A stretch of DNA of 64,000 nt from assembly GCA_000002445.1 (NCBI GenBank), contig CH464491.1, positions 288,001 to 352,000 of the forward strand. The letters run 5' to 3'. The notes under the pieces are model-generated. The model made no database searches. It was not told where the DNA came from and worked only from the letters and a program-made list of their open reading frames with translations. This stretch comes from Trypanosoma brucei (lineage: Eukaryota). Both the position numbers and the translations under genes were made by a program. Below are positions 15,463 to 37,993 of this stretch, in pieces; position 1 is the stretch's first letter; every line of letters begins with the position of its first letter.

Positions 15463-18400
15463 ATGAATTACCAAGCAATTACCGAAATTCCAGATAGCAA
15501 TACGATATTCCATGACACCATTTTTATGAGAAACAACAAACACGTCTCGGAGCAATGGATTCGTATTGGCGAATTGTACCCCAATGGTGCGAAGGAATCA
15601 TTGCTCCCGGAGACGTTTGCACGCGAACAGTTCGGACAAGGAAGTCACTATGAGTGCTTCATGCTTTCTGCCCTCGCCACTTTAGTAAAATTCCCCGACA
15701 TCATTCGGAACTGCTTCGTGTCGAGGAATGTGCGGCGTGACGGGAGGTACACTTTTCAGTTCTTTCGTGACAAGGAATGGGTGAAGGTTGAAATTGATGA
15801 CTCTGTTATGCTTGAGGATGATGAAGTTTTGTTCATCCGATCACCCACTAGTCATTGGTGGCCGCTACTGTTTGAGAAGGCTTATGCGAAATTCTACACC
15901 AGCTACGACAATTTGGAGGGTTGTACCTTACAGGAGGCGTACCATGACTTAACTGGCAACCCCGTGCTCAACATCCCCATGGACGCGAGGCTTGCCAAGG
16001 CTGCAGGTGTGGATGTGACTGGAGGTCAGTATTGGCTTGACCTCGCACAGAAGCTGCAATCCGGCCAGTTTGTTGGTTCGCTGCTGACGAGGGAAACGGA
16101 CCTTGAGTCGATGGGCTTGCAGAGTGAGCAACAATACGGGATACTAGAGATTTTTTCGCTAACTGGGACATCATCTGTAAGCGACATTGTGATTCACCTA
16201 TACAACCCATTCGAGGACGAGGAATTCACGTACAAAGGCCCGCTGAACAGTAAGGACACGGAGTGGACCCCCAAACTCCGTGAAAAGTATAACGTGGATG
16301 ATACGCACTCCATATTTCTTCCGCTACACGTTGCCCTGAAGATCGTAAATTCGGTGCAACTTTGCTACATATCCCCTATTGATGGTGACGCGACGTATTT
16401 TGATGATGAGTGGAAGGGTGAAACTGCGGGAGGGAACCCCACGAGTGTAACATGGCGCAAGAACCCCCTATACTGCGTCAGGAACGCTGGGATCAACCCC
16501 GTGGAACTGGTTGTCGTGATTAAGCAGAAGGATCAACGACGTTACATGTCTTCTGAGGAGCGAACCATGTACCTTCAATGTGGCATTGTTGTTGTTCAGA
16601 GTACCACAGTCACACAAATACCGACATATTTTGTAACAGGGAACAATCACAAAGCAATACACAAGAGTTTGTTCCTAAACTCTCGTGAAGTGTCCAGTTT
16701 CGTTCGGATACCACCTAATTCCTTGTGCTACCTTGTACCTTCTTGCATGAAGAAGGGAGCGGAGAGTGCATTTACGCTCGCACTGTACCGAGTGAAACTT
16801 CAAGACTACAGCAATATTCTGATTAAGAAACTTGAGGTCCCCTCTATGGATTGGGGACATTGTGCCATTGGAAAGGTTACGTTGGAAACAAAAGTGAAGG
16901 AACGGGTTGATTTTTTTGTTGACTGCCCTACTGACATTCACATTTTGATGCATCAAGAAAAACCGTTTGTGAACAAAGTTGGTGGTGATATTACAACTCG
17001 GGATTACGTTGGTGTCTACCTTTATGATGACACGGACCGTAAGATTGGAGGTGTGCACGCTGCGACGAATTTCAGGGAAACAAGTGTCTTGCATCGCCTT
17101 CCTCGTAGTGGTCGTTATGCTATTTCAATTACGTGTCCCCGGGCAAGTGGTGAAGTACCCATTGCTCTCACAATTGTTGGTTCTCCTGATGCTAATGTTC
17201 GTATTGTTGAGGCTCCTGATGATGCCTCCATGTTTGATGATGAGGATGATATTGCAGAGGGTGATGAGGATGCTACTGTTTCTAATCCCATTGACTACAT
17301 TCCTGTTGCTGGTGGAGGGCAGGTGTTCACTGAGGTACCCGATAGTACGGTCCCATTTGAAGATAAACGTTTCATGGTTGATAATAAGATTATGACGAAT
17401 GAACCGTGGATCCACATTGGTGACCTTTATCCTGAGGGAAAGACGCGCTCACTTTTGCCGGAGCGTCTGAGTCGTGAGCAGTTTGAGCAGGGTGAACACT
17501 TCGAGTGCTGTTGTCTGACCGCTTTTGCAGCGCTGGTGGAGCACCACCCCAACGTAATTCGTGACGCGTTTGTGACGAAGGCTGTACGACGTGACGGACG
17601 GTACACGTTCCGGTTCCACCGCTACGGTCAGTGGGTGAAGGTGGAGATTGATGATCGTATTCCCCTTCTTGGTGGGAAAACTTTATTCTGTCGATCATCT
17701 GATGGTTATTGGTGGCCACTACTACTAGAGAAGGCGTATGCTAAGTTCTACACACTATACCAAAATATTGAGGGATGTACGCTGCGGGAACTGTTTTACG
17801 ACCTAACAGGGCTTCCTGTGCTTAGCATTCCGATGGAGTTGAAACTCGCGAAGGCTGTACTGTGTGATGTTGATGATGTGAGTTTTTGGGTTGAGCTCAG
17901 TGAGGGTCTGAAGGATTGTGCGTGTGCTGCCGTTGCACGCCCCGGTTTCGATGACACCCTTGGTTTGTCCAATGGGCAAGAGTACGCTGTCCTTGATGTG
18001 GTATCGTTAACGGATGGTGAGGCCTCTTCCATATCTGATCTTGTTGTAAAACTTCATAATCCGTTTCTGGAGACTGAGTACAAAGGCCCTATGAATGCAA
18101 GCGATGCTGCGTGGTCGTCTGAGCTGCGTACCCGTCTATGTCCGGAGCGACGGGATACTATCTACATTCCCGTGGAAGTTTTCTGCAATGCATTTCTCAC
18201 TGTGGAGAAAGTTATGGTGCGTGGTCTTATTGTTCCCGGGTGGCAATTCAACAGTGAATGGGGTGAGGGCACGAACGGTGGCAATCCAACACTTGTGACG
18301 TGGCGTGAGAACCCCATTTACGTTGTGCAGAACACTGCGGATACCCCGTTACAGATTATTGCAATGATTGGGCAACCTGATCAGCGTCGCGTGCTACACC

Positions 18401-21400
18401 TTCTCCCCGAGCAAGAGGTAAACTATGTTCAATGTGGGTTGGTTCTTTCTCAGTGTACATGTAGCAATCCTGTACCAACATATTTGGTGACGAGTAACAA
18501 CCATCGTGTTGTGCACAAGGGTCTGTTCGTGAACTTTCGTGAGTCGGCGAATATTGTTACCATTCCAGCTAACTCTATGTCGTACCTAATTCCAAGCGCG
18601 ATGTTTCGTGACAAAACGAAGTTTCTTCTCTCATACTGGTTTCAAAAATTGCCTGACATGAAATTTATCAAAATCAGTCGTATCAATGTGAGTGTTGCGC
18701 GGTCACTACCTGCAATTGAGCACCTTGAGCTGCATAACCATGAAAAGAAACGCGTGGATTTTCTGGTTGATGTTCCCACTGATATTCACATTCTGCTTCG
18801 TCAGGAGAAACCTTGTGTGACGGTCCGTACGCACGATGCTATGGCTGATGACTTCCTAGGGATATATCTGTACAACGAGGATGAAAAGCGTATTGATGGT
18901 GTGACCGCTGCGACGAACTACAGGGAAATGGGGCTTGTTCACCGGCTTGCCACTGCGGGGAGATACGCTCTGTCGATCACGTGTCCTCGGGGAACCGGTG
19001 TTGTGCCGTGCCGTGTGGAGATCGTTGGCGTGGAAGATGCGAAGGTGCGTATCACCGACCCACCTGAGGATGCTGGTAATCTGTGTGAGGTTGACCTTCG
19101 CTTTCTGGGTTCTGAAGCTGAGGGTGTGCCTCTTGAAGACCTTCCGCTCGATAGTGACGCCGATTTGCAAGCTATATTGGAAGAACTGAGACGCCTGCAC
19201 GGAGACATTGATGCGAATGCTGAGCCAATTGCAAAACATGAGAGGATGATGAGTGACCGAGTTCATAAGATGGCGAGGCAGCTTCTTGCTAAGGATCGTT
19301 CGAAGTACTTACCAGGATACGATCTTCAAACGGTTAATTCCATACTTGACGCGGAGCCACATTTTGTCGTTTTAGAGCGCGATCGGTACCACCTAAAGGG
19401 TGATCCCAGGAATGCCACGAAGGTTCGGAATGTAGAGAGAAGCCTTCTTACTCTCGCTAATGAAATTCTGGAAAAACACGATGACCCTGACTTATCTTTC
19501 CTTGGAGCCGAGGTGGAAGGAATTCCCACCCTGGATCTCACTCTGATGAGCGACTCTTCATTTTCTGAGATGGCACGTGAGCGCATGCAATTAAAGCGGG
19601 ATCCCATTGCTAATGCGAGTCGTTTGGCTGAGGTTGAAGATAGTATGGTGGCACGTGCGAATGCTATTGCCAAGGAGATGCATTTGAGAGAGCGGCGATA
19701 TCTGAACCCTGAGCCTGAGGGTGTCCCCCTTGAGTTGCTTCCTTTAAACGAGGACGAAGTTGTGAGTGAGAAGGAGGACCGCCTCCGTGCGCTGAATCGT
19801 AAGGAGCGAAAAGACGAGAAACTGTTACGGAGTCTTGAGGACGTGATAGCGGACCGTGTACACGAGATCGCGAGGGAGCTGAAGCTGAGTGAACGTGATC
19901 TGTTCCTTGATCCCACTCCAGGAGGTTTCCCTGTAGCGCAGCTTCCGCTGGACGAAGACGATGTGTTTCATTCACTCGAAGTGGAGCGACTGCAACTGCG
20001 ACTGCGTCAGGATTCCCTTGCGAATAAGACATCAGAGATCAAAGAACTTGAAAGTTGGTTGAACCGTCGAGCGTGTGAACTTGCGCGTGTGAAGGTAGAG
20101 GAGGGTCGAGCGTTTCTAGACCCTGAACCTCTGGGGTTCCCACTTACCGACCTTAACCTTGACGGAGATAGTGAGTTTGTCAAGCTGGAATCGGAACTTC
20201 GTAAGTTGCGTTGGGAGCCGCGTGTGAACAGCACTGCTATGAGGACTGTGGAGGAGGATATTGCTCGCGTTGTATACCGCATAGCACTGAGGAAAACGTG
20301 TCTCGATCGTGACTATCTTGACGCGGAATATGAGGGTCGACCTGTGCAGGGGTTGCCTCTGAATGATAGTAAGGAGGTGCTTGCGATGGAGACGAGGCGC
20401 CGGGTGTTAATTAACGCGAAGGCTGACCGTGACGAAATCGGTGTTGCAGAGAATATGATACGTGATGCTGTGCGTGAGATCGCTCGCGCTCTGAATGTGG
20501 GCGAGCGCTTGGACTACTTGGAGCCATGCCCAAGAGGTGTCCCTGTAGAAGACCTCCCCCTTGACATGGATACGGAATTCCACGAGCTTGAGGTGCATCG
20601 GCAACGTCTCAAGTGTGATGCGAAGAAACAGGACACAGTAATAATGGATGTGGAGCGTGCACTGAATGATCGTGCGGAAGCCCTTGCGAGGGAGCACTTG
20701 TCGAGTGACCGTGGTTACTTGGACCCAGCATCTGTTGGTGTGCCGCTTCGTTTGCTACCACTTGATAGCGATAGTGTGTTCCAGGAGCTTGAAATTAAAC
20801 GTGCGCTACTGAAGAAGAACCCTCAGAGGAACGGACGTGCCATCTCGGCTTTGGAGGGTGGCCTGAACGAGCGTGCACACGTTCTTGCTACGGAAATGAA
20901 GCACGCGGAGCGATCGAAATTTATGGACCCTAACCCTGGTGGTATTGCCATTGAGGATGTTCCTATTGATAACGACGAGGTTTTTTGTGATCTTGAAATT
21001 CGTCGGTTTGGTTTGTGCGAGGACCCGCATGCTAATATAGCAGCGATACGAAATCTTGAAGATGCGATGAATGAGAGGGTGATCGAACTGGCTGATAAGA
21101 TGCGTTGTGAGATCCGCATGTTTCTGGACCCGATGCCATTGGGGGTGTCCTTAGATGAGCTGCCCCTTGACAATAACGAGAGCTTTGTTGCGAAAGAAGC
21201 TGAACTGCACAAGCTTCGGAAGGACCTGCGGGCAAATGGTGCCGATGTTGCTTTGCTGAAGTCTGACTTGAACGAGTTAGCCAAGCAGATGGCGGCGGAG
21301 ATGATTTCTAAAGATCGTGCTTTTCTCTTCCCTGAGCCTGAGGGTCGTCTACTGGAGGAATTGCCTCTAGATAGCGATAAGGAGTTTCGTTCTCTTGAAA

Positions 21401-24400
21401 AGCAACTACGGCTTCTTTGTAAGGAGTCTCCTCCTGAGGCACAGAAAATTGCTGCCATTGAGGAGTTGCTGGATGGTCGTGCGCATCAGCTTGCTAAAAT
21501 GAAGAACTGTGCGGAGCGGAAGGATTACCTGATTTCTCACCCTTGTGGTGTACCTTTGGATGATGTGCCACTGGACAATGACGATGAATTTTCGATGCTT
21601 GAAGTGAAACGAGCTGCGCTAATGCGTGACGTGGTGGGTAACAAGGACTCAATTGCCAGTGTGGAGAAGGCCCTGAATGGGCGAGCGGAAAAGCTTGCGT
21701 TGTTAAAGTTGCGTAGTGAGAGGTCGTTTCTCGATCCTGAGCCTCATGGCATCCCATTGCATTGTGTACCTCTTGATGATGATGATAACTTTCATTTGCT
21801 AGAGGTGGAGCGCTTGACATTGAAGGGTCTGAACATTCGCGAGAATGATCGTAAGTTGGTGGGTGTGGAAAATGCCATGAGGGACTACGTGAATGATTTA
21901 GCCCTTGAGGTGAAGCGAAAAATGAGAGAGGATGTTCTTGACACCTCACCTGATGGTCTTCCGTTGTCGGTGCTTCCTCTTGACAATGACTTACCGTTTA
22001 TTGAGTTGGAGAATGGATACATTAAAGCTGTTTTTGATGCTAAGGATACTTTGAAAATCCAGGACCTTGCAGGGGCGATGCGAAGACGTTCTGAGGACAT
22101 AGCACGTAAGCTGCGAAGTGATGTGAGGTTATCTCTCGAGCAACACCCACTCGGCTTTACTCTAGACGAGCTTCCCGTTGACGATAGTGAATTATTCTTG
22201 GGAAAAGAAAGGGAACTTCTAGAGTTGAAGCAAGATGGAAGATACAATTCCCCAACTGCTATTGAAATCATGGAGGAGCTTAACAGTATCATTTTGGACA
22301 TTGCCAAAGAACAAGCAATTAGAGAGCGCGAATTCCTTGACCAAGAACCGGAAGGTCGACATATCACTGAGTTGAATCTCGATAGCGATACGACATTCCT
22401 CGGGTTAGAAAGGCAGAGGAGATTACTCAAGAAGGATCCGTTTGCTGATCGCAGTAGGATTGTAGACTTGGAACAAATGCTTAACGATCGTTCGCACGAA
22501 CTGGCGAAAAAGCTCAACTCCCTAGATCGACCTAAATTCCTTCCCGTCGCCATACGTGGTGTGTTACTGTCTGAACTTCCCCTTGACAGCGATGCTGAAT
22601 TTACCCGACTTGAAGTTGAGCGCAGCTCTCTCTATCGCGATCCCGTACGAAACGCATCAACAATAAACCATGTGGAGGAAGCCTTGAATATCCGAGTAGC
22701 GGCTATGGCCGACGAAGTTGTCCGCCAGGATCGAATGTTCTTGGGCGAGGATGTTGAAGGTGTTTGTGTGCGTCACTTACCTCTTGATGATGACGCAGAG
22801 TTTCGTGCCCTAGAAACCAAGAGGGCGACATATAAAAGTTGTGGTTCTCGCATGGGCACGAAGGCTATCAAAGACCTTGAGGATCAGCTGGGAGATCGTG
22901 CAGCTGAGCTCGCCCGCACTGCAAAGAAGGAACTTCGCAACCTTCTCGGTACAGAACCCCTTGGTGTCCCACTCAGTGATCTACCAATTGATGTGGATGG
23001 TCGGTTTCGTGCGCTTGAAGACAATTATCGTGATCTTTCTCGTAACTCTGCGAACGGAGGGAAGCTTTGTGAGATTATTCTACAGTTGAACGAACGTGCG
23101 CTTGAACTGGCGGCGGAGTTGCACACCAAAGAGCGAGTTGTGCTAAGTCAATGTCCTGGAGGTATTCCACTGTCTGCACTTGCGCTGAATGAAGATGAAA
23201 TGTTCAAAGCTCTCGAAACGGAAGCTCGGAAGCTTAGGCATAGTACTGCTGGTCGAGGTCGCAACGCCGCTCGTATTTCTGAACTTGAGAGCGCGATGAA
23301 TGAGCGGGCGATGGAACTGGCGAACCAGTTGCGTAGGACATACTGCGACGCCGCTCCTGAGGGGATTCCACTGGAGCTACTTGGCTTGGGAGGGGTGGAG
23401 GAGTTTACGAAACTTGAAGATGCCTTGCGTGATGCGACGAAGGACCCCGTGAAGAATCGTGAGATAATAAGTGACATTGAGTTTGAACTGAACAGCCGTG
23501 CACACGTTGCTGCGATGGGACTTCTGGAAGGCGACCGCGATTACCTTGAATGTGAAACCATGGAAGTACCACTTTCTGATTTGCCTCTGAATACGGACAG
23601 TGTTTTTCGTGCGCTTGAGGTGGAGCGAGCGGTGCTGAAGTTGAGAGAACCTCACCGTGGCGCTCGTAGAGTCCGGGAGTTGGAGTTGAAACTCGTCGAG
23701 CGTGCTCACAGGCTTGCGGAAGAACTGAAAGAGGAGGATCTGAGTGGTCTTGATGGTGAGCCTGAGGGTGTATCATTACGTGCACTGAAACCACACAACG
23801 ACTCTTTGTTCAGTGAGTTTGTTGGAGCGATGCGAAAACTGAAAAGGGGACCGAAGAGAAACACTGTTGCTATTGAGGAATTGCGGGAGCGTATGAACGA
23901 GCGTGCGCACGAGTTGGCACAGGAAAAATTGAAGGATGACCGGGAGTTTCTGGATCAGTGTCCGGAGGGTGTTCCGCTTAGTGACCTTCCCTTGGGTACA
24001 GATCCTCTTTTCCACAAGCTGGAGACGGAACGCGCGAGGTTGAAGGAGCGTGACGCTGCTCGGAACATAACCCACATCCACGAACTTGAGAGTCGTCTGA
24101 AGGAGCGCGCAGTTGAGCTGGCAAATGAACAGAAAGGTCGTGATTTGAGCGAACTGGAGCAGTCGCCGTGCGGCGTGCCTATATATATCCTGCAGTTACA
24201 CGATGATCCCGTGTTGCAGAAGATGCTGAACAAAATGCGTGGATTGAGGAACCGCGGCGTCACTGGTCCCGAGTTTGTCGCACTCATTGATGAAATAAAC
24301 AACTGTGCGAGGGACGCTGCCGAGGAGCTACTGCTGCGGGACCGTGAGTACCTTGAACCTGAACCTCTCGGTGTACCACTGAGCCTTCTATCACTCACAA

Positions 24401-27400
24401 CGGACACTGTGTTTCATGGTCTGGAAGTGCAGCGTGCGGTGCTCAAGGCGCAAAATGCACGTCGGAACGCAGCGAAGATTTCTGATTTTGAGATGCGTTT
24501 AAATGAACGTGCTGTGCAACTGGCAGAAGTGCAACGGCAGCGGGAGCTGGAGGGGCTTGATCCCGAACCTGAGGGTATTCCTATATCTGTGCTTAATCCT
24601 CACGGAGATGTGGAATTTATTAAGCTTGTAACTGAGTTGCGTCAATTGTGTAGTGAGGGCAATAATGAGGGCATGTGTGATGTGCTGAAGACCACGATGA
24701 ACGACGTTGTGCATGCTCTGGCGAAGCGATTGAAGGAGGGAGATCGTGGCTACCTCGACCCTGAGCCCGAGGGTGTTCCGCTGTGTGTGCTGCCGTTGGA
24801 CACTGATGTGTTGTTTTTTAGGCTAGAGTGTGAACGTGTGACTCTGAAGGCACGTAATGCGCACTTAAACGCGAGGAGAATATGTGAGTTGGAGGACGCA
24901 CTCAATAACCGTGCAGTGGAACTTGCTCGCGAGCAACTGCGGCAGGACGTTAATGGTGTGGACGAGGCGCCGTGCGGTATTCCTCTGCAGCTGCTACGAC
25001 TTCACGAGGACAGTACCTTTCTTGTGATGGTGGATGATATTCGCACCCTAAGGAAGAATCCGGATGCTAACAGCGAGGCGATTGACGCCGTTGTCATGTC
25101 CATGAATGATCGCGCCTATGACGTTGCGATAGCTCAATTTGACCGTGGTTTCCTTGATCCTGAACCCGAGGGCGTTCCATTATGTATTTTGCCACTGGAT
25201 GACGATGAGTTGTTCCATGGTATGGAGGTGGAGCGGATTAAACTGAAGCTTACTGATGCGCGTCGCAATGCGCAGACGATTGGCACACTGGAGGAAGAAA
25301 TGAATGGCCGCGCACACGAACTCGCATTGCAGCAGTTGCGTGAGGAGCTTTCCGGTATTGATGCGGCACCTGAAGGCATTCCCTTGTCATTGTTGAGGGT
25401 GATGGAAGACCCTGCCTTTGCACTGATGGTGCTGGAGTTGCGTGACCTCAAGAAGGGCACCCAGGGTAATGCGGAACGGATTCGGGAGGTGGAGGACGCT
25501 ATGAACAACCGCGCTTACGAACTCGCGGATGGGCTGCTGGAGGGTGATCGCAGCTATCTAGACCCTATTCCCCTCGGCGTACCCGTCTCGGAACTTCCCT
25601 TGTGTTCCGACGAACCGTTTGCCACTATGGAGGTTGAACGAGCGAGGTTGAAGGCCGAAGACGCACGACGGAATGCAGCAGGGATTGGAGAACTTGAGTT
25701 GAAACTTAACAACCGCGCGAAGGAACTTGCGTCTGAACAACTATTACGTGATTTGGAAGGATTCCACGACGAGTATGAAGGGATTGACCTTGCGCACCTG
25801 AGGCCACACGACGACAAAGAATTTGTCTCCCTTGTACCGGAATTACGGAGGTTGAAAAGAGATGGTGACAAGGAAGCTGTTGAGCAACATATGCGCAGCA
25901 TGGATAGGCGCTTACGTGAGCTTGCGAAAGAGCTTGTTGGTGGTGATCTTTGGTTTCTTGACAAGGAACCGGAGGGTGTTCCCTTGACGTACTTACCTTT
26001 GGATGGGGACGAGATTCTCGACAAATTGCGCCATGAACGAGCTCAACTAAAGATACAAGATCCGCGGGGGAATGCTGACAGAATTGCGGAACTTGAGAGG
26101 AAAATGAATGAACGTATTCATGATCTAGCGAGGTGTATAGGAGATGAGGATTTTGATGGTGTTGAGGGAGAGCCTTGTGGCATTCCGTTGAGTTTACTCT
26201 CTCCTAGAGATGATGAGGTTGTTGCAAAACTTATCAATGACATTCGTAAAGTGAAATATTCTACAGGGGAGAAAAGCTCGAATGGTGCGCTGAATAACTT
26301 GCAGGTTGAACTTAGCAAACGTGTACACCAACTAGCAGAGGATGTTTTAATAAGAGACAGGGTGAAGTACCTAAACCAGTGCCCAGAAAGTGTTGATATA
26401 TCTTTTCTTCCCCTTAGTACTGACGAACAGTTTCGTGCCTTGGAGTTGGAGCGGGTCATTATTAATATCCAATCGAACGGTGACGACAAACGTTTGGACG
26501 GCTTAGAAGATATGCTTAACAAGAGAGCGCATGAGCTTGCAAAGGAACAGCTGCAGGAGGACCTAAGAGGACTGGAACAGGCTCCCCATGGTGTTCCACT
26601 TGACGTTCTTAAACCCCACAGCGACTTACGATTCATTAAAGAGGCGGAACAGCTACGGAACTTAAAAAGAGACCCGCTTCGTAATAAGAGGGAGATAGAT
26701 GACCTTGTGGAGCAAATGAATAATACTGTTGGTGAACTTGCCCTGAACTTACTACGTAGCGATCGTGACTACTTGCATTTGGCTCCTGAGGGAGTACCGA
26801 TTGAAGAGCTTCCACTGGAGGTCGATGCAAAGTTTTGTGCTTTGGAGGCGGAGCGTGCAATGTTAAAAGGCGAGAACAACCCGAAGAATGCGAGTATGAT
26901 ATTATCTTTGGAAGAGAAATTAAATGAGCGTGCTCGCCAGCTGGCTCAAGAGCAACTACTGGAAGACCTGAAGGAATTGAGTTCTTTTCAGCATTGTGTT
27001 CCTCTCTCACTTTTATCGCCTCATACTGACGTTCAGTTTGCTGCTGATGTTGCTGAATTTCGACGACTGAAAAAAGAAGGGGAGCAAAACACCCCTGCCA
27101 TTCAGGGCGTTGTCGGGAGACTTAACGCACGTGCGAATGAGCTCGCGGAAGAGTATTTGCGTACCGATCGCGCATCGTATCTTAACCCTGAACAACTTGG
27201 TGTGCCACTTGACTTGCTATCTTTGGACACAGACTCTGAGTTCGTGTCACTGGAAGCTGAGAGGCTAAAATTGTTGTCCTATCCGGCGGTTAACAATGAG
27301 CAAATAACTCGTTTGGAAGCTGAGTTGAATGCATGTGCCAAAAAATTGCTTGTTAAAAGATTGTATAAAGAAAGGAATTATCTGGATAGGGATCCACTTG

Positions 27401-30400
27401 GCGTGTCTCTGAATGCTTTACCTCTTGATACGGATTCGCAGTTTCATTTCATGGAGCTGAAGCGGTTGGCTTTGAAGGCAGGAGATCCCTGTTGTAATGA
27501 AGTCGCAATCAATACTTTGGAGGAGAGATTGAGTGACCGTGCATACGAGTTAGCAAGGGGGCAAATTGCGGAAGACTTGAGTGATCTGATAAGTGCTCCC
27601 AGGGGTATCCCGGTGAGTCTCCTTCATCCCCATAATGATCCAGAGTTTCATGAGATGGTTGTTAGTGTTCGACTGTTAAAGAGGGATTCTCAACCTGATC
27701 TATCGAAACTTATGAGGCTGGTCGATGACCTGAACAGGAGGGTAAAGGAGCTTGCAGACTGTGCTGTAGGTACATGCCGGAGAAAACTCAACCCACTCCC
27801 GGATGGTATACCCCTGCAGTCGCTTCCCCTAGATGAAGATCCATTATTCAGTCAGATGGAGCGTGATCTCGTTTCATTGTTCCTTGAAGATGAGAAAAAG
27901 AATGCCACTCGGATAACTAAGCTGGAGGACCGCCTCAATGAACGTGCGGCGAACATTGCTGTCTCTGTAAAGGCGAAGGATTTGGAGCAGTTGGAACAGA
28001 CGCCTTGCGGCATACCTATTGAGCTTTTAAGGCCCCATGAGGATTCAACTTTCGCCTCACTGGCAAATCAATATCGCATTTCCAAGCACCTGGGGGGGAG
28101 TGATTCACACGGCGTGAATGTTGGAACCCTGAACAAAAGGGCTACGGAAATAGCCATAGAGCTTCTGAGGGGCGATCAGAGTTACATTGATCGTCAACCT
28201 TGTGGGGTTCCTTTTTCCGCTTTGGAATTGGAGAAGGATCCCCAATTCCGCGACTTGCAAGTTCAGCGGATGAGGATGGTACTTTCAAATCCGAAACGCA
28301 ATCTCAACAGAATAACTGAACTTGAGGTACAACTTAACTCGTACGTTCAGAGGTGTGCGCAGGCGTTCTTGGCTGCTGATCGTGGATTTGTTGACAAAGA
28401 ACCTGGGGGTGTACCGCTCGCGGAGCTAGACCTTGACAATGATCCTCTCTTTCATCGAATGGAGGTAGAACGAGCAAAGTTGAAAATAAGAGAGCCAGTC
28501 ATCAACGCCTATCGGATACGTAATCTGGAGGAAAAATTGAACGATCGCGCTCATGAGTTGGCAGAGGAATTGTTGGCCACTGACCTTGAGGGAATTGCGC
28601 CCGAACCCGAGGGAGTTTTGTTGGCTTCCTTGCACCCGCACGACGATGCCGAATGTGCCTCCCTCATCGCCGCAAAACGGCGGTTGCTAAAGGAACCGTC
28701 CCAAAACATGGAAAAGATTAGGGACGTTCAGGAAAAGTTGAACAACCGCGTGTTTCAGTTGGCAAGGGAGGTAATTTCCAAGCTCCGTAAACAGTTGGTT
28801 CAAGAGCCGGAGGGGATTCCGCTGGAATTCTTACCGCTTGACGCAGATAATACATTTCGCAGCATGGAGAGAGATCTCCTTGCCTTGCAAGCTACTCCTC
28901 GACGTAATGATATTAAAGTGGAGACCTTGAGGGGGAGTCTGAACGAACGCGCGTGCGAGTTAGCAAGGGGTCAAATACAATGTGGCCGTGGATTCCTTAA
29001 CCCACAACCGGAGGGTGTTGATCTCGAGCACCTTCCCCTTGATGAAAATGTGGTGTTTCGAAGCAAGGAGGTAGAAAGGACCAAACTCAAAAGGTGCCCT
29101 CACGAAAATGCAGCCGCTATTACGCAGCTAGAAAGTGATCTGAATGCCCTCGTACACAGCATCGCAAAAGACATAAAATTATCAGACCGTGCATTTCTGA
29201 ACCTAACGTCACACGGTATCCCGAGGGAATTGCTACCACTTGATGAGGATCGGAGCTTCACGACGATGGAACGTCGGCGAAGGAGACTGAAACGTGACGG
29301 CAACCGTAGGGCCACTGCAATGATGAATCTGGAGGAAATGATGCAGGATCGTGTAGATGACTTGGCTTTTCGCATTTTGCGAGGGGATCGGGGTAACTAT
29401 GTCACTCTTCCTGATGGGATTGACGCAGCAGACATTCCTATAGATACTGATGAACGTTTCGGAACCTTGGAGTTGAGGCGCGCAGTCGTAATGTTACAGG
29501 GTTCGGATGATTGCAAGGAACAAGTGGGGAAGTTGGAGCACCAGATGAGCGAGCGACTACAAGAATTAGTCAGGAAGCGGGTAAAAGAAGACAGAGATTT
29601 CCTTGATCCGGAACCTGAGGGCATTCCATTGAAGGATATTCCACTTGACTCCGATGCCGAGTTTAGGCATCTTGAGGCGCGAAGAAGAAAAATCCGTCGC
29701 GAATCGCGTCGTCGAGTAACTAATGTCGCCGATCTGGAGGAGGCTATGAATGATCGCGCACATGTACTTGCAAGGTGTATCGTCGCTGAAGATGTCGGGC
29801 ACCTTCGGCCTGATTACCGAAGGATTCCAACCAACGAGCTGCATCTTCATAACGATGACACGTTTAGGTCACTCGCTAGCAAACGTCGGGAGCTGCTACA
29901 GGTGGGCGCAGTCACCGTTGATATTGCTGCCATCGAAGACGATATGGACATCCGGGCGCTGCAGGTTGCTGATGATGTAGTAGCGGAGGAACGGGCCTTT
30001 TTAGACCCACAACCCGGGGGCATGTTTATTGTTGACTTGCAGCTCGATGAAGATGAAACATTCTTTGCACTTGAGCGTGAGCGGCGGAGGATGAGAAAGG
30101 ATTTCCGTTTCGCTAAGCGGAACAAGGAGGCCATTAACGACCTTGAAGTCAGTCTTAATGAACGTGCTTGTGAATTGGCAAGGGAGGCGTTTTCAAAACA
30201 ACGCGATTTCATGGATCAGGAGCCCGAAGGTATTCCTCTAAAGGAGCTGCCTCTTGATAATGACTTGATTTTTAAAGATGCTGAAATTTCTCGATACGTG
30301 TTGTTGAAGGATCCAAAACATGCAGCGAATGAATTAATTGCCTTCGAAAACGTCATGAATTGTCGGGCGCATGAGCTAGCGAAGGAGATCATTGCAAAAG

Positions 30401-32859
30401 ATCGTGACTTCCTTGACCTTGAACCTGATGGCGTCCCTCGAGAAGAGTTGCCGCTTGATACAGATGAGAGGTTTCAGGTATTGGCACAAGAACATTTTCG
30501 ATTAAAAAGGCTGAATGGAAATCTGAAGTCCACTGAGGTAAGAGTTTTAGAGGAAAAAATGAATGAACGTCTGCACGAACTTGCCAAAGAATTCCTTCAA
30601 GAAAATCGTTCATTTCTTGATTCAGAACCAGAAGGCGTTCCGATAGCCGATGTTCCCTTTAGATGTGACCCTACTTTCGTCGAAATTGAACGAGAGTTAC
30701 TAAAGTTGAGCAGGAATCCGGTGGTGCCCGATAGCGCGAAGCAAATCGTTCGTGATCTTCTAAACAAGAGGTTGCATGAGATCGCTGCGGCTTTTTTGAA
30801 GAAAGAACGAATATTCCTCGACCCTGAACCCTTTGGTCTTCCATTGGCGTGTTTACCACTTAATTATGACCACATCTTGAATTTACTTGAACGAAAGCGG
30901 CGTGCTCTCAAAAAGAACGGGAGGGGAGAGATCAAAACAATTCGCTCCCTGGAGGAAGAGATCCAAGATCGTGTTAACGTTATTGCAGTGGAGTACTTGG
31001 AGATGGAACGGAGTTTTCTTGACCCCCGACCCCGGGGAGTGCCTTTGACCTTACTTCCTCTCAATGGTGATTGGCGTTTTCGTAGCATGGAGGTTGAGCT
31101 ACGGGCACTACGGAAGAACCAAACGAAAAACCGAAAGGATATTGAAAAAATAGAGGGAGACCTTAATCTTAGGGCGACGGAACTGGCAGGAGCCTTTCTA
31201 CAAAAACATCGTGTTTTTATCGATCCTGAGCCCCTTGGTGTGCCCATTGAAGAATTACCTCTTGACTCCGATTCCATCTTTCACAATATGGAGAGTATGT
31301 ATCTTCAAATGGGACGAGATATCCCGAGAGCAGCAGAACTTCGAAGAATGGAAGAGGAAATGAATGACCGAGTACGTGAACTCGCTACCGAGCATCTTCA
31401 GGGAGAACGCGCTTTTTTGAACCAAAAACCTCAAGGTATACCACTGTGTGACCTATCGCTTAACAACGATAGGCCGTTTCGTGACATGGAAAAGCGACTC
31501 CGTGCCCTTCGCAAGCACCCTCGTAGCAACACCGAAGGTATCAAAACTATTCAAGACGAAATGAACCAACGAGTAAATGCATTGGCTCGTCGCAAAATAT
31601 CTGATGATCGAAGCTATCTTCCGCTTGAGCTTCATGGCGTTCCCGTATATGACATTCCACTTGATGATGATAGGGAGTTCAGGGACCTTGAGATCAAACG
31701 GCACAGAGACAAAAACCTATCACCCGAGGACGCTGTGTTAGTTCAACGGGTTGAAGAAGAACTGGTCAGCCGCGCTCTGGATATCGCAAAAGATTTTGTG
31801 TCGAGAGAGCGCTCTTTTCTAGACTCTAACCCACAAGGAGTTCCAATAATCCGTCTTCCGTTGAGTACCGATGAGCAGTTCCGAGAATTAGAGACGAGGC
31901 GCCGCCACCTCAAAAAAGATCCGAGGAATGCGGGCATAGTCGCACTGCTAGAGCAGCAGCTCAGAGCGCGAGCACACGAGCTAGCAGAGGGACTATTAGG
32001 TTGGCAGGATGTTCAATTTCATGAAGCTAACCATTCCGTAGCGGAGATGTGGCCGCGAATCGGTGAGTTGTACCCTGAAGGAATCCGAAACTCTGTGTTT
32101 CCGGAAATAACACAGCCGGGCGATACTTCATCTGCGCCTGGTGAACTTGGCTATTTAGCACCTTTCATTGCCGCTCTCAGTCAACACCCGCCTCTAATTC
32201 ATCGGCTTCTGGAAACGAAAACACATCCCGTTAATGGTCCATATTCTTTCATCTTTTTTGATCCGAACAGCAACCCTGTTCGTGTTGACATTGATGACCG
32301 TGTGCCAGTGGATGCGAAGTGTGAGCCCAAGTTTACACGCGTGCCACACCGGTCTTGGTACCCGCTGCTGCTGGAGAAGGCATATGCGAAGTTTGTTGGT
32401 GGGTACGCAAAGCTCGACCAGTGCACACCACACGAAACCCTCCGTGATCTAACGGGCCGTCCAGTGCTACATATCCCTTTTGATGATCGACTCGCAGATG
32501 CAGCGAATACGGGTGACTTCCGATCTGTGAAATTCTGGAAGGGGATTAAAAGGAACCTCGCGGCTGGAGATGTGATCACATGCATAAGCAACCACGAAAG
32601 TGTGGACGGCCTTCACTCTCAATGCAGTTACGCTCTCCTTAGTGTAATCGAAACTGTGCATGAATCGAATGATGTCTCTGACATCGTGATCAAATTACAC
32701 AACTGCTACTACGATAGCCCGACATACGACGGCCCACTGTGTAACGATGATGATAACTGGACCGATGGTTTGAAGAGACTTTGCCATTATAATCCTGAGG
32801 AGGATGCACTTTACATACCTGTTCCTGTGTTTCTGCGTAACTTCTCGAGCATGCAGCGC
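15463..32859 (+). CDS. Giant calpain-like protein with four parts: two tandem N-terminal calpain-like modules (15463-17215 and 17340-19060), about 60 degenerate 68-70-aa GM6/FRA-type repeats (19080-31990), and a C-terminal calpain-like module (31990-32859). The 3' end is truncated by an N-gap.
   Basis: 5834-codon ORF beginning at the first ATG after a poly-T/AG signal (15416-15435). Module 1 has ...GSHYECFMLSALATL...WWPLLFEKAYAKFY... and module 2 has ...GEHFECCCLTAFAAL...WWPLLLEKAYAKFY...; each is followed by a domain-III-like GGNPT..TWR.NP.Y motif. The repeat core is FLDPEPEGVPL..LPLD.D..F..LE.ER..LK....N...I..LE..MN.RA.ELA. The ORF's apparent stop at 32965-32967 is a gap-edge artefact. Confidence 0.8.
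19080..31990 (+). repeat. Degenerate coding tandem repeats of about 204-210 bp (68-70 aa). They are the same family as the 1-10172 array but strongly diverged.
   Basis: The motif FLDPEPEG[VI]PL recurs roughly every 68-70 residues across about 4300 aa of the translated ORF. Confidence 0.8.
26634..27278 (+). repeat. 645-bp segment duplicated at 32960-33604 (immediately after the N-gap)
   Basis: gaggcggaacagctacggaacttaaaaagagacccgcttcgt ... gaggctaaaattgttg is identical in both places, apart from one 1-nt indel at the gap edge, one n, and one gag/gaa difference. Confidence 0.9.
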
Positions 32860-32959
32860 NNNNNNNNNNNNNNNNNNNNNNNNNNNNNNNNNNNNNNNNN
32901 NNNNNNNNNNNNNNNNNNNNNNNNNNNNNNNNNNNNNNNNNNNNNNNNNNNNNNNNNNN
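32860..32959. other. Assembly gap (100 N)
   Basis: Run of n. The flanking sequence has an ambiguous base (n at 33011) and a 1-nt indel relative to its duplicate. Confidence 0.95.
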
Positions 32960-35900
32960 ATTCATAAAGAGGCGGAACAGCTACGGAACTTAAAAAGAGA
33001 CCCGCTTCGTNATAAGAGGGAGATAGATGACCTTGTGGAGCAAATGAATAATACTGTTGGTGAACTTGCCCTGAACTTACTACGTAGCGATCGTGACTAC
33101 TTGCATTTGGCTCCTGAGGGAGTACCGATTGAAGAGCTTCCACTGGAGGTCGATGCAAAGTTTTGTGCTTTGGAGGCGGAGCGTGCAATGTTAAAAGGCG
33201 AGAACAACCCGAAGAATGCGAGTATGATATTATCTTTGGAAGAGAAATTAAATGAGCGTGCTCGCCAGCTGGCTCAAGAGCAACTACTGGAAGACCTGAA
33301 GGAATTGAGTTCTTTTCAGCATTGTGTTCCTCTCTCACTTTTATCGCCTCATACTGACGTTCAGTTTGCTGCTGATGTTGCTGAATTTCGACGACTGAAA
33401 AAAGAAGGGGAGCAAAACACCCCTGCCATTCAGGGCGTTGTCGGGAGACTTAACGCACGTGCGAATGAGCTCGCGGAAGAGTATTTGCGTACCGATCGCG
33501 CATCGTATCTTAACCCTGAACAACTTGGTGTGCCACTTGACTTGCTATCTTTGGACACAGACTCTGAGTTCGTGTCACTGGAAGCTGAAAGGCTAAAATT
33601 GTTGTTGGACAGAGATGGTTATGTGTCTTATATTAATGTGTTGGAAACTCGTTTGAATGATAGGGTGCGGGAGCTGTGTCGTCTGAGTCTACTTGATTTT
33701 CCCGAATTTTTGTTGGATGTGTCGAACTTTGGGGTTCCTTTGGAGGAACTGTGCCTCTTCGAGGATGATGGTTATCGGCGTCACATTTGTTCGTGGTACA
33801 AGCTTCGTAGGACCCCGGAGGTTGATAACGAACGCATTTCTTGTGAAGCTTGTATTGTTGAAATAGTTCGGGAAAAAGCAAAATTGTATACTGAGGAGAT
33901 ACTTCGATCTCTTCCTCTCGTATATCGTGGTATACCGCTACGTGATGCCGATTTGTTTCGGAACGATGGTTTTATTAATAGTGTTAAACGTTTTCGGCGC
34001 GCCGTTCGTGAAAAGCGGGATGAGAGTGAGATTGTGGAGGCCGAAGATAATATGAAAAATATAGCATTTGATATAATTGATGGTTTGATTTTAAAGGAAC
34101 GTGGCAGTCTTGACCAAGAGCCGGAAGGAATATCTATCAATAACGTTCCACTTGATTACGACAACGCCTATCTTGAGATGGAAGCAGAACTCCATAGTCT
34201 TTTAAAGCAACAATCCATGTGTGAAGCGGCTTCCATATTGCAACTCCGAAAAGCAATGAACGACAGGGTACACCATCTTGCCCTTATTGAGCTGGCGAAG
34301 ATGAGGACTTTCTTGGACCCTGAGATATTCGGCATACCCATTAAAGATCTTCGTCTTGAAGGTGACATGGACTTCCGGAACGCGGAAATTAGTCGATATA
34401 AAAAATTAAAAAATGAGGCAAATGCTGATGTGAAAGACCTTGAAGTTTTAATGACAGCACGTGCACTTGAGGTAGCGAAGGCTTTTGTTGCGCGAGAGAG
34501 AGCTTTTTTAGAGCCAGAACCACATGGGTTGTTGTTAGAGGAATTGCTTCTAGATACGCATAAGGTGTTTACGGATTTGGAGAGGGAGCGCCGAGTGCTC
34601 CTCAAGGAGCCAGGGTTGTGTGAAAACACTGTGAAAATCAAATCACTGCAGGACAAAATGAGAGCTGTGGTCAACGAGTTGGCGGTAGCGTACGTTGCAG
34701 AGTCCCGTAAGTTCCTAGATCCTGCGCCAGAGGGTGTTCCGCTTGAGGAATTGTCTTTAGACTCGAACGAGCTATTTATTGAATTGGAGAAAAGGCGGTT
34801 TGGGCTCCTGCGGGAGGGGAAGGGAGATGAGGGTAATCTTAAAGATGTCGAGAAAAGTATGCAGGACTGCATTCGTGAGTTGGCTAAGGGGCTTTTGAAG
34901 GAAAATCGTGCCTATCTCAACCAAAAGCCATTAGGTATACCACTTGATTATCTACCCCTCAACAACGACAAGAAGCTCCGTGAATTAGAGAGGAAACGAC
35001 GGGAACTTCTGAATACCTACGATAATGATTCTCCCCAAGTGAAGTCTATAGAGGGGGTGATTATTAAGCGAATTGACAAAATTGCTGCTCGTTACCTTGA
35101 AGGAGAGCGCTCCTTTCTGGATCCTTGTCCACAAACTGTTCCCCTGCGTTACTTGCCTCTTAACGCAGACACCAATTTTTGTTCCCTGGAACAGAGGCGG
35201 AGGGAGCTGCGCAGGGGAGGAGACACTGCCGAAGATGATGCAATGATAAAGGAACTGGAAATTCGTATAAATGATCGCGCTCATGAACTGGCTAAAGAGG
35301 TACTACACAATGGTCGGCTTTTTCTTCATCCTGAAATTCTCGGTGTCGCAGTTTCTGATATTCCTTTGAGTGATCACGAACCGTTTGTTCAACTTGAAGA
35401 AGCTCTGAGAAGAATCAAGGTCGACAACCCAATAAACAGCTTTATGGAGGTTGACCTAAGGGAGAAATTAAAGCAGTGTGCGAGACAGGTAACTGAAAAG
35501 ATGCTCGATGAAGAACGGAGTTTCTTGGATCAAAATCCTTTGGGTATTCCACTGAACAGTTTGATGCTGAATTATGACCCGAAAATGCAAGAACTCGAGC
35601 GAGTGAGAAGGAAGAAACTGCGGGATAAAGTGGACGCTAACGAGGAGGAGAGGGAGATGGTGAGGCGCGTCAACGAGATGGCGGAGGAGGAATTACGCCG
35701 TCAACGTATGTACCTTCCGGCCACACCATTGGGAATCCCATTCCAGTACTTGGGTCTTGACAGCGATGGGAAATTTGGCCAAATGGAAAATTTTCTACGC
35801 ACATTGAAAAGGGATCCTCTGTCGAAAGAAAAAGCGATTCGTGATCAGGAGAACGCAAATAGGCAGTACGTATTTAGAACGGCAGCGGAATACAAACGAA

Positions 35901-37993
35901 GGGAGCGCGCGTATCTTAACCCCGAGCCTAATGGAGTTTCCCTTAAGCGGCTATCCCTAGATACTGATCCCAAGTTTCAGAAGTTAGAACAAATGAGAAG
36001 AATGCTGATGCATAGCTCTGATTCAAATGATGCCCAAATTGGTCATTTGGAACATTTGGCTAACGAATATGTGCTTCAACTCGCTTTGCAACAGCTCGGG
36101 TGGCAAGACGCAGAATTCCATGACAGAAATAGGCACCTCGCAGACGATTGGGTGCGCATTAGCGAACTATACCCTGAAGGTAAATACGTACCCTTTGAAC
36201 CCACAAAAGCTAACGGTTGCTCGGTTGTCTCCGCGCCCAACGACGCAAGTTACCTGGCACCTTTTATCGCCGCTTTGAGCCGCTGTCCAGATATGCTAAG
36301 GCAATTATGTGATACAACATCACATCCCGTTAATGGTCCATATTCTTTCATCTTTTTTGATCCGAACAGCAACCCTGTTCGTGTTGACATTGATGACCGT
36401 GTGCCAGTGGATGCGAAGTGTGAGCCCAAGTTTACACGCGTGCCACACCGGTCTTGGTACCCGCTGCTGCTGGAGAAGGCATATGCGAAGTTTGTTGGTG
36501 GGTACGCAAAGCTCGACCAGTGCACACCACACGAAACCCTCCGTGATCTAACGGGCCGTCCAGTGCTACATATCCCTTTTGATGATCGACTCGCAGATGC
36601 AGCGAATACGGGTGACTTCCGATCTGTGAAATTCTGGAAGGGGATTAAAAGGAACCTCGCGGCTGGAGATGTGATCACATGCATAAGCAACCACGAAAGT
36701 GTGGACGGCCTTCACTCTCAATGCAGTTACGCTCTCCTTAGTGTAATCGAAACTGTGCATGAATCGAATGATGTCTCTGACATCGTGATCAAATTACACA
36801 ACTGCTACTACGATAGCCCGACATACGACGGCCCACTGTGTAACGATGATGATAACTGGACCGATGGTTTGAAGAGACTTTGCCATTATAATCCTGAGGA
36901 GGATGCACTTTACATACCTGTTCCTGTGTTTCTGCGTAACTTCTCGAGCATGCAGCGCTGTCACATAAACTGTGGCGACCGTCTGACTGCGCCTGGTGAG
37001 TGGACTGGGGTAAGCTGTGGAGGAAACCCGAAGTTCACAACTTTCCGGAACAACCCCATCTATCTTGTGGAAAACAAAACCTCCCGTCCCGTTACCATTC
37101 TTGCTGAGCTGCGGCATCATGCGCCAGCATACCGTGACCCTGACGATGTAAATCACTATCACCAGTCTGGGCTTGCACTGCTAAAGGCGATAAACACGCG
37201 TATGCCTGTGAGTCCGATCTTGACAAGTGTGACACACCGCTTTTTGCATAGGGGCATGATGTTGGATGCACGGGAGGTGTGTGCTCAAATGGAGTTGCCT
37301 CCGAGTACCACGTGCTATCTCGTCCCATATACGTTGGGTCGTGAGAACTATGGAAAGTTTCACATATCTGTGTACCCCGGTCTTGCAAAGGTGAATCTTG
37401 CCCCTCTTCGAACTGCGGCTCTCTTTGCCTCTCCTGTTGTTATTTCTATGTCGTTGAAAACGGAACTGCGGAACGGTGTGAAGGTTGAGTTTGTTGTGAG
37501 CAGAGCATGTGATGCTCATGTTTTGCTTTGTCAGAGACGACCAAAGGTTATTGATGTATGTAAAAGTGATTTACTCGGTGATTTCAGTGTTAACATGGCA
37601 GTTTATGATGAAAATGGAATCCTGTTGATGAACACAGGGGAGCCTAGGAATGCGCGGGAGGTTGCGGTTTCCTTCCGAGTTCCCCAGCAAGGTTTGTATT
37701 CTGCTGTAATTATGGCTCTTGGCGTGGATCGCCGAGGAAATCATAGAGGATGTCCCTGCCACCTAACGATATTTACGTCGAAAAAAGCGAAAGTGAGACT
37801 CCTTGGTACGGTCCCTAATTTTCCCAGGCGTGCAACACCAAGAACCTCTATCCGAAGTCAGTCAGCGGAAATCATGACACCAGTTAGTTTAACACCAAGA
37901 GACGGTCCCAAAACTGCAGGTTCGTTTCATTTGCCGTATATTTCCGGTGGACAGTCAACGACAGACTCTCCTTTTGTAATGGGCATAAAATGA
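32960..37993 (+). CDS. Third calpain-like repeat protein (5' end missing in the gap). It has degenerate repeats (32960-36100) and a C-terminal calpain-like module with a distinct tail (36100-37993).
   Basis: ORF of the track (32804..37993); the real sequence starts at 32960 in the same frame. The first 645 bp are identical to 26634-27278 of gene 2. The C-terminal module 36318-37115 is near-identical to 11233-12030 of gene 1. The tail after TILAELRH diverges from gene 1. Confidence 0.65.
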   Translation: MHKEAEQLRNLKRDPLRXKREIDDLVEQMNNTVGELALNLLRSDRDYLHLAPEGVPIEELPLEVDAKFCALEAERAMLKGENNPKNASMILSLEEKLNERARQLAQEQLLEDLKELSSFQHCVPLSLLSPHTDVQFAADVAEFRRLKKEGEQNTPAIQGVVGRLNARANELAEEYLRTDRASYLNPEQLGVPLDLLSLDTDSEFVSLEAERLKLLLDRDGYVSYINVLETRLNDRVRELCRLSLLDFPEFLLDVSNFGVPLEELCLFEDDGYRRHICSWYKLRRTPEVDNERISCEACIVEIVREKAKLYTEEILRSLPLVYRGIPLRDADLFRNDGFINSVKRFRRAVREKRDESEIVEAEDNMKNIAFDIIDGLILKERGSLDQEPEGISINNVPLDYDNAYLEMEAELHSLLKQQSMCEAASILQLRKAMNDRVHHLALIELAKMRTFLDPEIFGIPIKDLRLEGDMDFRNAEISRYKKLKNEANADVKDLEVLMTARALEVAKAFVARERAFLEPEPHGLLLEELLLDTHKVFTDLERERRVLLKEPGLCENTVKIKSLQDKMRAVVNELAVAYVAESRKFLDPAPEGVPLEELSLDSNELFIELEKRRFGLLREGKGDEGNLKDVEKSMQDCIRELAKGLLKENRAYLNQKPLGIPLDYLPLNNDKKLRELERKRRELLNTYDNDSPQVKSIEGVIIKRIDKIAARYLEGERSFLDPCPQTVPLRYLPLNADTNFCSLEQRRRELRRGGDTAEDDAMIKELEIRINDRAHELAKEVLHNGRLFLHPEILGVAVSDIPLSDHEPFVQLEEALRRIKVDNPINSFMEVDLREKLKQCARQVTEKMLDEERSFLDQNPLGIPLNSLMLNYDPKMQELERVRRKKLRDKVDANEEEREMVRRVNEMAEEELRRQRMYLPATPLGIPFQYLGLDSDGKFGQMENFLRTLKRDPLSKEKAIRDQENANRQYVFRTAAEYKRRERAYLNPEPNGVSLKRLSLDTDPKFQKLEQMRRMLMHSSDSNDAQIGHLEHLANEYVLQLALQQLGWQDAEFHDRNRHLADDWVRISELYPEGKYVPFEPTKANGCSVVSAPNDASYLAPFIAALSRCPDMLRQLCDTTSHPVNGPYSFIFFDPNSNPVRVDIDDRVPVDAKCEPKFTRVPHRSWYPLLLEKAYAKFVGGYAKLDQCTPHETLRDLTGRPVLHIPFDDRLADAANTGDFRSVKFWKGIKRNLAAGDVITCISNHESVDGLHSQCSYALLSVIETVHESNDVSDIVIKLHNCYYDSPTYDGPLCNDDDNWTDGLKRLCHYNPEEDALYIPVPVFLRNFSSMQRCHINCGDRLTAPGEWTGVSCGGNPKFTTFRNNPIYLVENKTSRPVTILAELRHHAPAYRDPDDVNHYHQSGLALLKAINTRMPVSPILTSVTHRFLHRGMMLDAREVCAQMELPPSTTCYLVPYTLGRENYGKFHISVYPGLAKVNLAPLRTAALFASPVVISMSLKTELRNGVKVEFVVSRACDAHVLLCQRRPKVIDVCKSDLLGDFSVNMAVYDENGILLMNTGEPRNAREVAVSFRVPQQGLYSAVIMALGVDRRGNHRGCPCHLTIFTSKKAKVRLLGTVPNFPRRATPRTSIRSQSAEIMTPVSLTPRDGPKTAGSFHLPYISGGQSTTDSPFVMGIK

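Follow-up and report, generated by a model that had tools for sequence, protein, structure and literature searches.

The ClpGM6 locus and gene 2

We analysed a 64,000-nt stretch of the Trypanosoma brucei genome (hereafter the window; contig CH464491.1 of assembly GCA_000002445.1, positions 288,001 to 352,000), the plus strand of which carries three giant tandem open reading frames (ORFs) in the ORF list. Here, we focused on the second of them, gene 2, a giant calpain-like gene in which two types of a degenerate ~68-aa repeat unit, A and B, alternate across the centre of a long array. Pfam assigns to gene 2, in order, two N-terminal calpain modules, a long DUF7623 array and a C-terminal calpain domain. 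The ORF as called extends over 15463..32967, but an assembly gap (N run 32860-32959) truncates the gene at its 3′-end; the stop at 32965-32967 is therefore not real, and the readable part, 15463..32859, has 5,799 codons. The alternating region shares 99% identity with a T. brucei equiperdum 'calpain'.

The array was cut into units by an iterated hidden Markov model (HMM) on the gene 2 translation, which gave 64 units (u01 to u64) of 65-70 aa each at aa 1214-5519, and the units were sorted into classes A, B and C, where C stands for canonical. The typed layout is C x22, (AB) x9, C, AB, AB, A-like, AB, C x16 (Table 1). A tandem period of ~68 aa between CysPc domains, with Peptidase_C2 and Calpain_III on both sides, places the array in the DUF7623 family, and within aa 2694-3905, the zone of strict alternation (3636 nt), the Pfam model DUF7623 (PF24610) matched in 18 stretches with an E value of 1.9e-300 and 970 bits against a cut-off of 27. 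Among 1.84 billion representatives, 108 matched DUF7623, and all 27 matches that carry a source name come from trypanosomatids; judged on these 27, the family is restricted to kinetoplastids.

Table 1. Features of the gene 2 array and of the flanking genes, in window coordinates
Feature	Position	Strand	Evidence
Gene 1, 3′ part of ClpGM6	9..12914	+	Translation; antibody peptides; Tb927.11.1090/1100; repeat count
Gene 2, giant calpain-like protein gene directly downstream of ClpGM6	15463..32859	+	ORF list, translation, N runs
Two N-terminal calpain modules (CysPc + domain III) of gene 2	15463..19101	+	Pfam Peptidase_C2 E 3e-71 (2 stretches), Calpain_III
u01-u22, canonical C-type DUF7623 units	19102..23541	+	HMM segmentation, leave-one-out typing
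u23-u40, strict A/B alternation, nine AB pairs	23542..27177	+	Identity by lag, permutation, typing, Pfam
u41, lone canonical unit breaking the alternation	27178..27378	+	Leave-one-out typing
u42-u48, AB, AB, A-like u46, AB	27379..28791	+	Leave-one-out typing; other genera
u49-u64, canonical units	28792..32019	+	HMM segmentation, leave-one-out typing
Start of the gene 2 C-terminal calpain domain, cut by gap	32020..32859	+	Pfam; direct repeats D1/D2
Gene 3, paralogue with 5′ end lost in gap	32965..37993	+	Translation, direct repeats; matches T. b. gambiense fragment P0011

Two unit types alternate in the central array

A first-pass annotation of the window had proposed that units alternate strictly between two types over 23400-27500, with a super-repeat of about 137 aa. 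The units were aligned and compared in register, in place of residue-lag autocorrelation. Across u23-u40, identity at unit lags 1-8 was 0.30/0.41/0.30/0.41/0.29/0.41/0.31/0.39, a periodic pattern in which even lags stand at 0.41 and odd lags at 0.30 up to lag 8, while in the flanking zones the in-register identity was flat across unit lags (0.30-0.36). The excess of lag 2 over lag 1 was matched in 2 of 100,000 shuffles of the 18-unit order (z = 4.7). By class, mean identity was 0.474 for A-A, 0.335 for B-B, 0.302 for A-B and 0.318 for canonical-canonical comparisons. Moreover, when A, B and C HMMs were applied along the ORF with each unit left out in turn, a separation of types that had been suggested as a check, all 18 units of the strict zone and three later pairs were correctly typed. 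Taken together, these results confirm that the alternation of two unit types is real.

The strict zone lies wholly inside the interval proposed at first, and the four peptides given there as examples were all found, as u24, u25, u28 and u29. Besides the strict zone, that interval contains the end of u22, the whole of canonical u41 and the first part of u42, and it ends too early: with single-unit interruptions, the alternation runs past 27500 through u42-43, u44-45, the A-like u46 and u47-48. The super-repeat measures 133-138 aa with a mean of ~134.6 aa, somewhat less than had been estimated. A residue-lag autocorrelation, also put forward as a check, gave nearly equal values at lags 68, 135 and 268, with a modest excess (0.92 vs 0.82) when bands were summed; it is almost blind here because the units vary in length and a core motif is common to both types.

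Some units outside the strict zone have an ambiguous character. The pair u21-u22 is borderline AB-like, with u21 weakly A by score; u46 bears the canonical ending ..DR.; and u52 scores weakly A in leave-one-out typing. A cryptic, eroded AB-like pair, u53-u54, lies at 29599-29997 ('..EDVG/HLRPDYRRIPTNELHLHND', with the slash at the junction), and orthologous junctions are present in P0006, P0008 and P0009. In the C-terminal canonical zone, 28792-32019, the band-summed autocorrelation gave a faint even-over-odd excess (0.835 and 0.82 vs 0.78). The two-unit period may once have reached further into this zone.

Type-specific residues meet at the A-to-B junction

Column frequencies were computed over 47 A, 47 B and 91 canonical units from four genera. 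B units have G as the first residue in 62% of cases, which never occurs in A or C, and carry P-H where A and C carry L-D (P 85%, H 81% in B; 0-4% elsewhere and 0% in A). The P that precedes this position is found in 91% of A and 71% of C units and in 0% of B units, and the E of the helix 1 motif 'LE.ER', present in ~90% of A and C units, is likewise at 0% in B. The ending ..DL. characterizes A units (83%, compared with 3% of C and 9% of B), whereas B and C units end in ..DR. As a result, the A-to-B junction reads '..DL./G....P.GIPL..L.PH.D' instead of the usual '..DR./[FY]LDPEPEGVPL..LPLD.D', and at the B-to-A junction the canonical form is found. Across the A-to-B junction, the derived C-terminus of A thus meets the derived N-terminus of B, and the type-specific residues sit mainly at this junction and in the extended N-terminal segment of B, off the long helices.

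The two sides of the junction also co-vary. An ending '..R.' was followed by F/Y in 104 of 120 junctions and an ending '..L.' by a non-aromatic residue in 40 of 46, with a Fisher p of 4e-19 that treats orthologous junctions as independent; within T. brucei alone the counts were 38/7 for '..R.' and 1/10 for '..L.'. There was no charge complementarity between A and B, both of which are acidic (~-5 and ~-2). Read from these residues, the AB zone is best seen as a rod whose every second junction is of a second kind, and the conservation of type-specific residues argues for purifying selection on two distinct unit classes.

Age of the two-unit block

Tandem Repeats Finder found no tandem repeat at the DNA level. 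Compared by codon position, A units were identical at 0.55 of first, 0.655 of second and 0.33 of third positions, and third-position identity lay at 0.31-0.33. Where two units share a residue, they shared the codon in a fraction of 0.356, compared with 0.337 expected from codon usage. Since codon identity is near expectation and synonymous sites are saturated, the similarity is kept up at the level of the protein. In a neighbour-joining tree of T. brucei and Phytomonas units, all 24 of 24 B units fell into one clade and 20 of 24 A units into another, with zero intruders in either; each unit type thus has its own clade, as amplification of a block, rather than of single units, would produce.

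Homologues from other trypanosomatids were then typed with HMMs trained solely on T. brucei units. Angomonas deanei (P0002) was typed as cABABABABABABABABCaBABcABC, Strigomonas culicis as cBABABABABABAbAb, T. congolense as BaBCaBABAABCCC..., and Phytomonas EM1 as C x22 aBABABABABABCBAbABCABABcABCCC..., while two T. conorhini fragments gave C x14 ABABABAB and ABABABABABABCABABa, respectively. A similar alternation was obtained by typing in L. braziliensis, L. orientalis, L. mexicana and T. vivax. The single-unit interruptions at u41 and u46 are equally placed in all these homologues, with that at u41 kept in Angomonas, T. conorhini, T. congolense, Leishmania and Phytomonas. Between species, identity was 0.37 at even and 0.28 at odd unit lags.

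The Phytomonas protein P0020 has exactly 64 units, 62 of which fall on the exact diagonal with T. brucei in a unit-level alignment. Positional orthologues were more similar than units of the same type elsewhere in the array, both for A (0.496 vs 0.434, p = 0.011) and for B (0.376 vs 0.304, p = 4e-4). The unit-type clades and the conserved positions across genera together show that the two-unit block was amplified before the lineages split and has been positionally frozen since. That the dimer was fixed before its units diverged, as the first-pass annotation had put it, is thus borne out by the clades, the saturated synonymous sites and the matching positions; the sequence comparison supports a stronger statement, namely that the AB amplification predates the trypanosomatid radiation.

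Idiosyncratic junctions were observed at u34-u36 (25771-26367) and are kept in Trypanosoma, Angomonas, Strigomonas, Phytomonas and Leishmania. In all these genera the B unit u34 ends in '..GDLW' and the next unit starts with 'FLDKEPEG', and the A unit u35 ends in '..DFDG' (DFDGV), followed by '..P.GIPL..L.PR.D'. Individual units, to judge from such junctions, have a conserved identity of their own.

Two homologues differ in length. The T. rangeli protein (P0026, 2821 aa) has 28 units; units from about u4 to u16 and most of the AB zone are gone, leaving A B A(u44) B(u45) A A. It is either a natural deletion variant or the product of a collapsed draft assembly. The L. orientalis protein (P0018, 7062 aa) has 90 units, with an extra block of ~25 units containing further AB pairs after the u53 equivalent; part of the array seems to have undergone segmental duplication. 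When the N-terminal calpain modules were used as the query, the full-length T. cruzi orthologue sought, XP_809993, was not recovered.

Predicted structure of the units

We modelled four successive units from the AB zone (ABAB, u29-u32, with an alignment of 31 sequences) and from the canonical zone (CCCC, u08-u11) with AlphaFold2. Predicted local distance difference test (pLDDT) and predicted template modelling (pTM) scores were 92.4 and 0.74 for ABAB and 92.9 and 0.76 for CCCC, so the AB zone is not predicted to be more ordered than the canonical units. In the models, each unit opens with an extended, proline-rich stretch containing short turns and continues with two helices, which form a helical hairpin. 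Helix 1 is longer in A units, with 17 residues and a 4-residue loop after it, than in B and C units, where it has 13-14 residues (15 in one B) and the connecting segment 5-7; in B units, the 'L.PH.D' segment makes extra helical turns. A spectrin-type rod or coiled coil, that is a ~106-aa three-helix bundle or continuous heptads, does not fit helices of 13-17 and 21-30 residues per 67-aa unit with proline-rich separators. A structural search gave no significant match. Antiparallel self-pairing of the AB zone was dropped by reasoning alone, because the interruptions at u41 and u46 break the A-on-B register.

Neighbouring genes and related arrays

The array of gene 1 contains 49 near-identical 68-aa GM6 repeats and a few degenerate units, followed by a C-terminal calpain domain. 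Two peptides, KASDSRSFLDPMPE and ERRKLIAEDREGN, served as immunogens of the anti-ClpGM6 antibody (Hayes et al. 2014, PMC4121973); both are located in the gene 1 repeat and absent from gene 2. ClpGM6 is split between two gene models, Tb927.11.1090 and Tb927.11.1100, one for each half (PMC9981465). Variant units were also seen in the ClpGM6 array: '..RIARLEERMNELSRELARMKLKDR' occurs twice, 405 nt apart (6717-6788 and 7122-7193), and '..RICRLERKMGRRVDKLAKLK' once (9741-9800). Gene 2 itself is not ClpGM6, since its units are ~32% identical rather than 90-100% and the antibody epitopes lie in gene 1; it is a paralogue and neighbour of ClpGM6.

Past the gap, the first part of gene 3 is identical in DNA (100%) to gene 2 u38-u41 (B, A, B and half of C); divergent canonical units of its own and a calpain domain follow. 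The copied segment covers 32965-33600, corresponding to 26637-27270, and divergence starts in the middle of u41. Beyond this point, the gene 3 sequence 'LLLDRDGYVS..' is closer to the T. congolense u41 orthologue ('LLLDRNGNKN..') than the u41 of gene 2 is. The breakpoint may be one of recombination or gene conversion, or a mis-join. The window has two N runs, at 8584-8683 and at the end of gene 2. The C-terminal calpain DNA of gene 2 is 99% identical to that of gene 3 and 94% to that of gene 1, and the C-terminal calpain domains of the three genes (11229-11921, 32212-32859 and 36311-37003) share 94-100% DNA identity despite very different arrays, which suggests that the 3′-ends of the three tandem genes are under concerted evolution. 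Minus-strand ORFs inside the alternating zone, at 23955-24407, 25554-26024 and 26118-26636, were taken to be incidental to a long coding region with strand bias.

In the first CysPc domain of gene 2 (window 15463-16500), an alignment to m-calpain (1kfu) showed that the catalytic Cys and Asn positions are kept and the His position is Glu, so that the Cys-His-Asn triad of an active calpain is incomplete. Because of this replacement, the gene 2 product is probably non-proteolytic, as judged from this first domain.

Multi-unit repeats of higher order were found in other DUF7623 proteins. T. brucei FLAM3 (P0048) has a 7-unit repeat at 96% identity, which is its known 567-aa repeat; a L. braziliensis protein (P0027) has a 5-unit repeat at 88%, a T. 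melophagium protein (P0035) a 6-unit repeat at 98%, and the 'Tb-292-like' proteins of Leishmania (P0037) and Porcisia (P0029) have 8-unit repeats at 84-86%. In these young repeats, neighbouring units are only ~25-30% identical while whole blocks are 84-98% identical. Their presence in five proteins indicates that block-wise amplification is the ordinary mode of growth of DUF7623 arrays.

Discussion

Gene 2 resembles the ClpGM6/H49 arrays in having PF24610 repeats placed between calpain-like domains, and it shares its locus with ClpGM6. In those arrays the units have been homogenised to 90-100% identity and their copy number varies, whereas the units of gene 2 are strongly diverged, their number and order are fixed across genera, and the central third is built from two subtypes. 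Work on T. cruzi H49/calpains has separated conserved from degenerate repeats and proposed that degenerate arrays are rarely recombining ancestral remnants; the degenerate-repeat calpain of T. cruzi (XP_809993) was found at cytoskeletal microtubules and the flagellum (PMC3214072). ClpGM6 (PMC4121973) and FLAM3, with its 567-aa repeat (PMC4541047), are both proteins of the flagellum attachment zone (FAZ). Gene 2 shares with FLAM3 and the other higher-order repeats of the family a multi-unit GM6-like block as the amplified element, but FLAM3-type repeats are young and span 5-8 units, while the AB block has two units, ~41-47% identity between copies and an origin before the radiation. Higher-order repeats in GM6/DUF7623 proteins were already known, and the searched literature makes no mention of an A/B alternation; what is new here is a higher-order repeat that is ancient, two-unit and positionally frozen.

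We consider it fairly probable that the AB zone is an ancient two-unit block within a DUF7623 hairpin array, kept by selection as the structural period in a calpain-like protein of the cytoskeleton. A block of one A and one B unit (~135 aa) would have been amplified to ~12 copies in the ancestor of all sampled trypanosomatids; the array would then have ceased recombining, so that each unit diverged and retained its position. The altered junction at every second boundary would give the rod a two-unit structural period. The reason for selection to keep both classes could be that the altered junction modifies the geometry of a rigid rod locally, or one of its surfaces, and the central zone might then be a distinct, periodically patterned element for docking or spacing within the cytoskeleton of flagellum attachment or the subpellicular one. 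The most likely role of the gene 2 product, from what its sequence offers, is a structural one, as a long rod whose central segment is specialised and carries a periodic pattern.

Several observations weigh against this reading. The ABAB and CCCC models are equal in confidence and unit architecture, with no computed difference in geometry. T. rangeli keeps ~2.5 AB pairs, so at least one lineage can do without the complete set. The canonical zones of T. brucei and Phytomonas are just as frozen in the number and order of their units, so this conservation is not specific to AB, and the frozen order may be due partly to an absence of recombination substrates. The junction statistic counts related junctions separately, and the literature searched yielded no functional data on gene 2. 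A structural requirement behind the two-unit repeat, which the first-pass annotation had suggested with the pairing of helices as an example, is plausible in view of the type-specific residues that have been kept, but these residues are mainly off the long helices, the predicted fold is shared with canonical units, and T. rangeli has undergone its loss.

The alternative that has to be taken most seriously, though we think it rather unlikely, is a frozen historical accident, in which unequal crossing-over amplified the block and a functionless alternation persists through lost recombination and generic purifying selection. Block amplification is normal in the family, where repeats of 5-8 units at 84-98% identity are found; the canonical zones likewise keep their units in number and order, AlphaFold2 gives AB and canonical blocks the same fold and confidence, and T. 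rangeli tolerates the loss of most pairs. What such an accident accounts for less readily is the behaviour of particular residues. B-specific states persist in ~80-98% of the 47 B units from the four genera, while A and C lack them almost entirely, and they stayed as the rest of each unit diverged to ~33% identity. Moreover, the A-specific and B-specific changes adjoin each other across the A-to-B junction and co-vary, which looks like a co-adapted interface.

A more specific form of the selective reading is speculative and, in our judgement, improbable: the AB zone would be a molecular ruler, each of its ~12 AB modules docking one repeat of a periodic cytoskeletal lattice. Giant cytoskeletal ruler proteins such as nebulin, with 7-module super-repeats, and titin, with 7- and 11-domain super-repeats, as well as the rods of dystrophin and spectrin, offer a parallel, since the gene 2 product is likewise a giant rod-like protein with a simple unit, a higher-order period and position-specific conservation of units across species. 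If the ruler existed, candidate lattices would be subpellicular or FAZ microtubules, with their 8-nm tubulin dimer repeat, or the FAZ junctional complexes with their regular spacing, and the conservation of all 64 units would reflect a defined molecular register on the lattice, comparable to that of nebulin along thin filaments.

Recent duplication, gene conversion or an assembly artefact is a very improbable source of the A/B similarity. The two gaps in the window, the perfectly duplicated gene 2 segment at the start of gene 3 and the known collapse of the adjoining ClpGM6 in assemblies give reason for caution, but the units are 30-47% identical, with saturated synonymous sites and no DNA tandem repeat, and the recurrence of the unit order in independently assembled genomes of six genera refutes this explanation by collinearity. 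A chance pattern, read into a variable degenerate array, hardly merits consideration: it could appeal to the nearly equal raw residue-lag peaks at 68 and 135, and it is refuted by the permutations, the perfect leave-one-out typing and the recovery of the pattern in other species by HMMs trained on T. brucei.

The GM6/H49 repeat proteins ClpGM6 and FLAM3 control flagellum attachment and cell shape in trypanosomes, while the repeat itself is a domain of unknown function. Our results leave established views unchanged, and their value lies in structural annotation and as a source of hypotheses. With the number of 64 units, their order and the central two-unit period kept from Trypanosoma to Leishmania and Phytomonas, what has been called a degenerate repeat becomes a defined rod with addressable positions. 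The two junction types, the diagnostic residues and natural deletion variants such as that of T. rangeli offer testable handles on the role of the repeat and on the question whether such giant proteins work as rulers or spacers.

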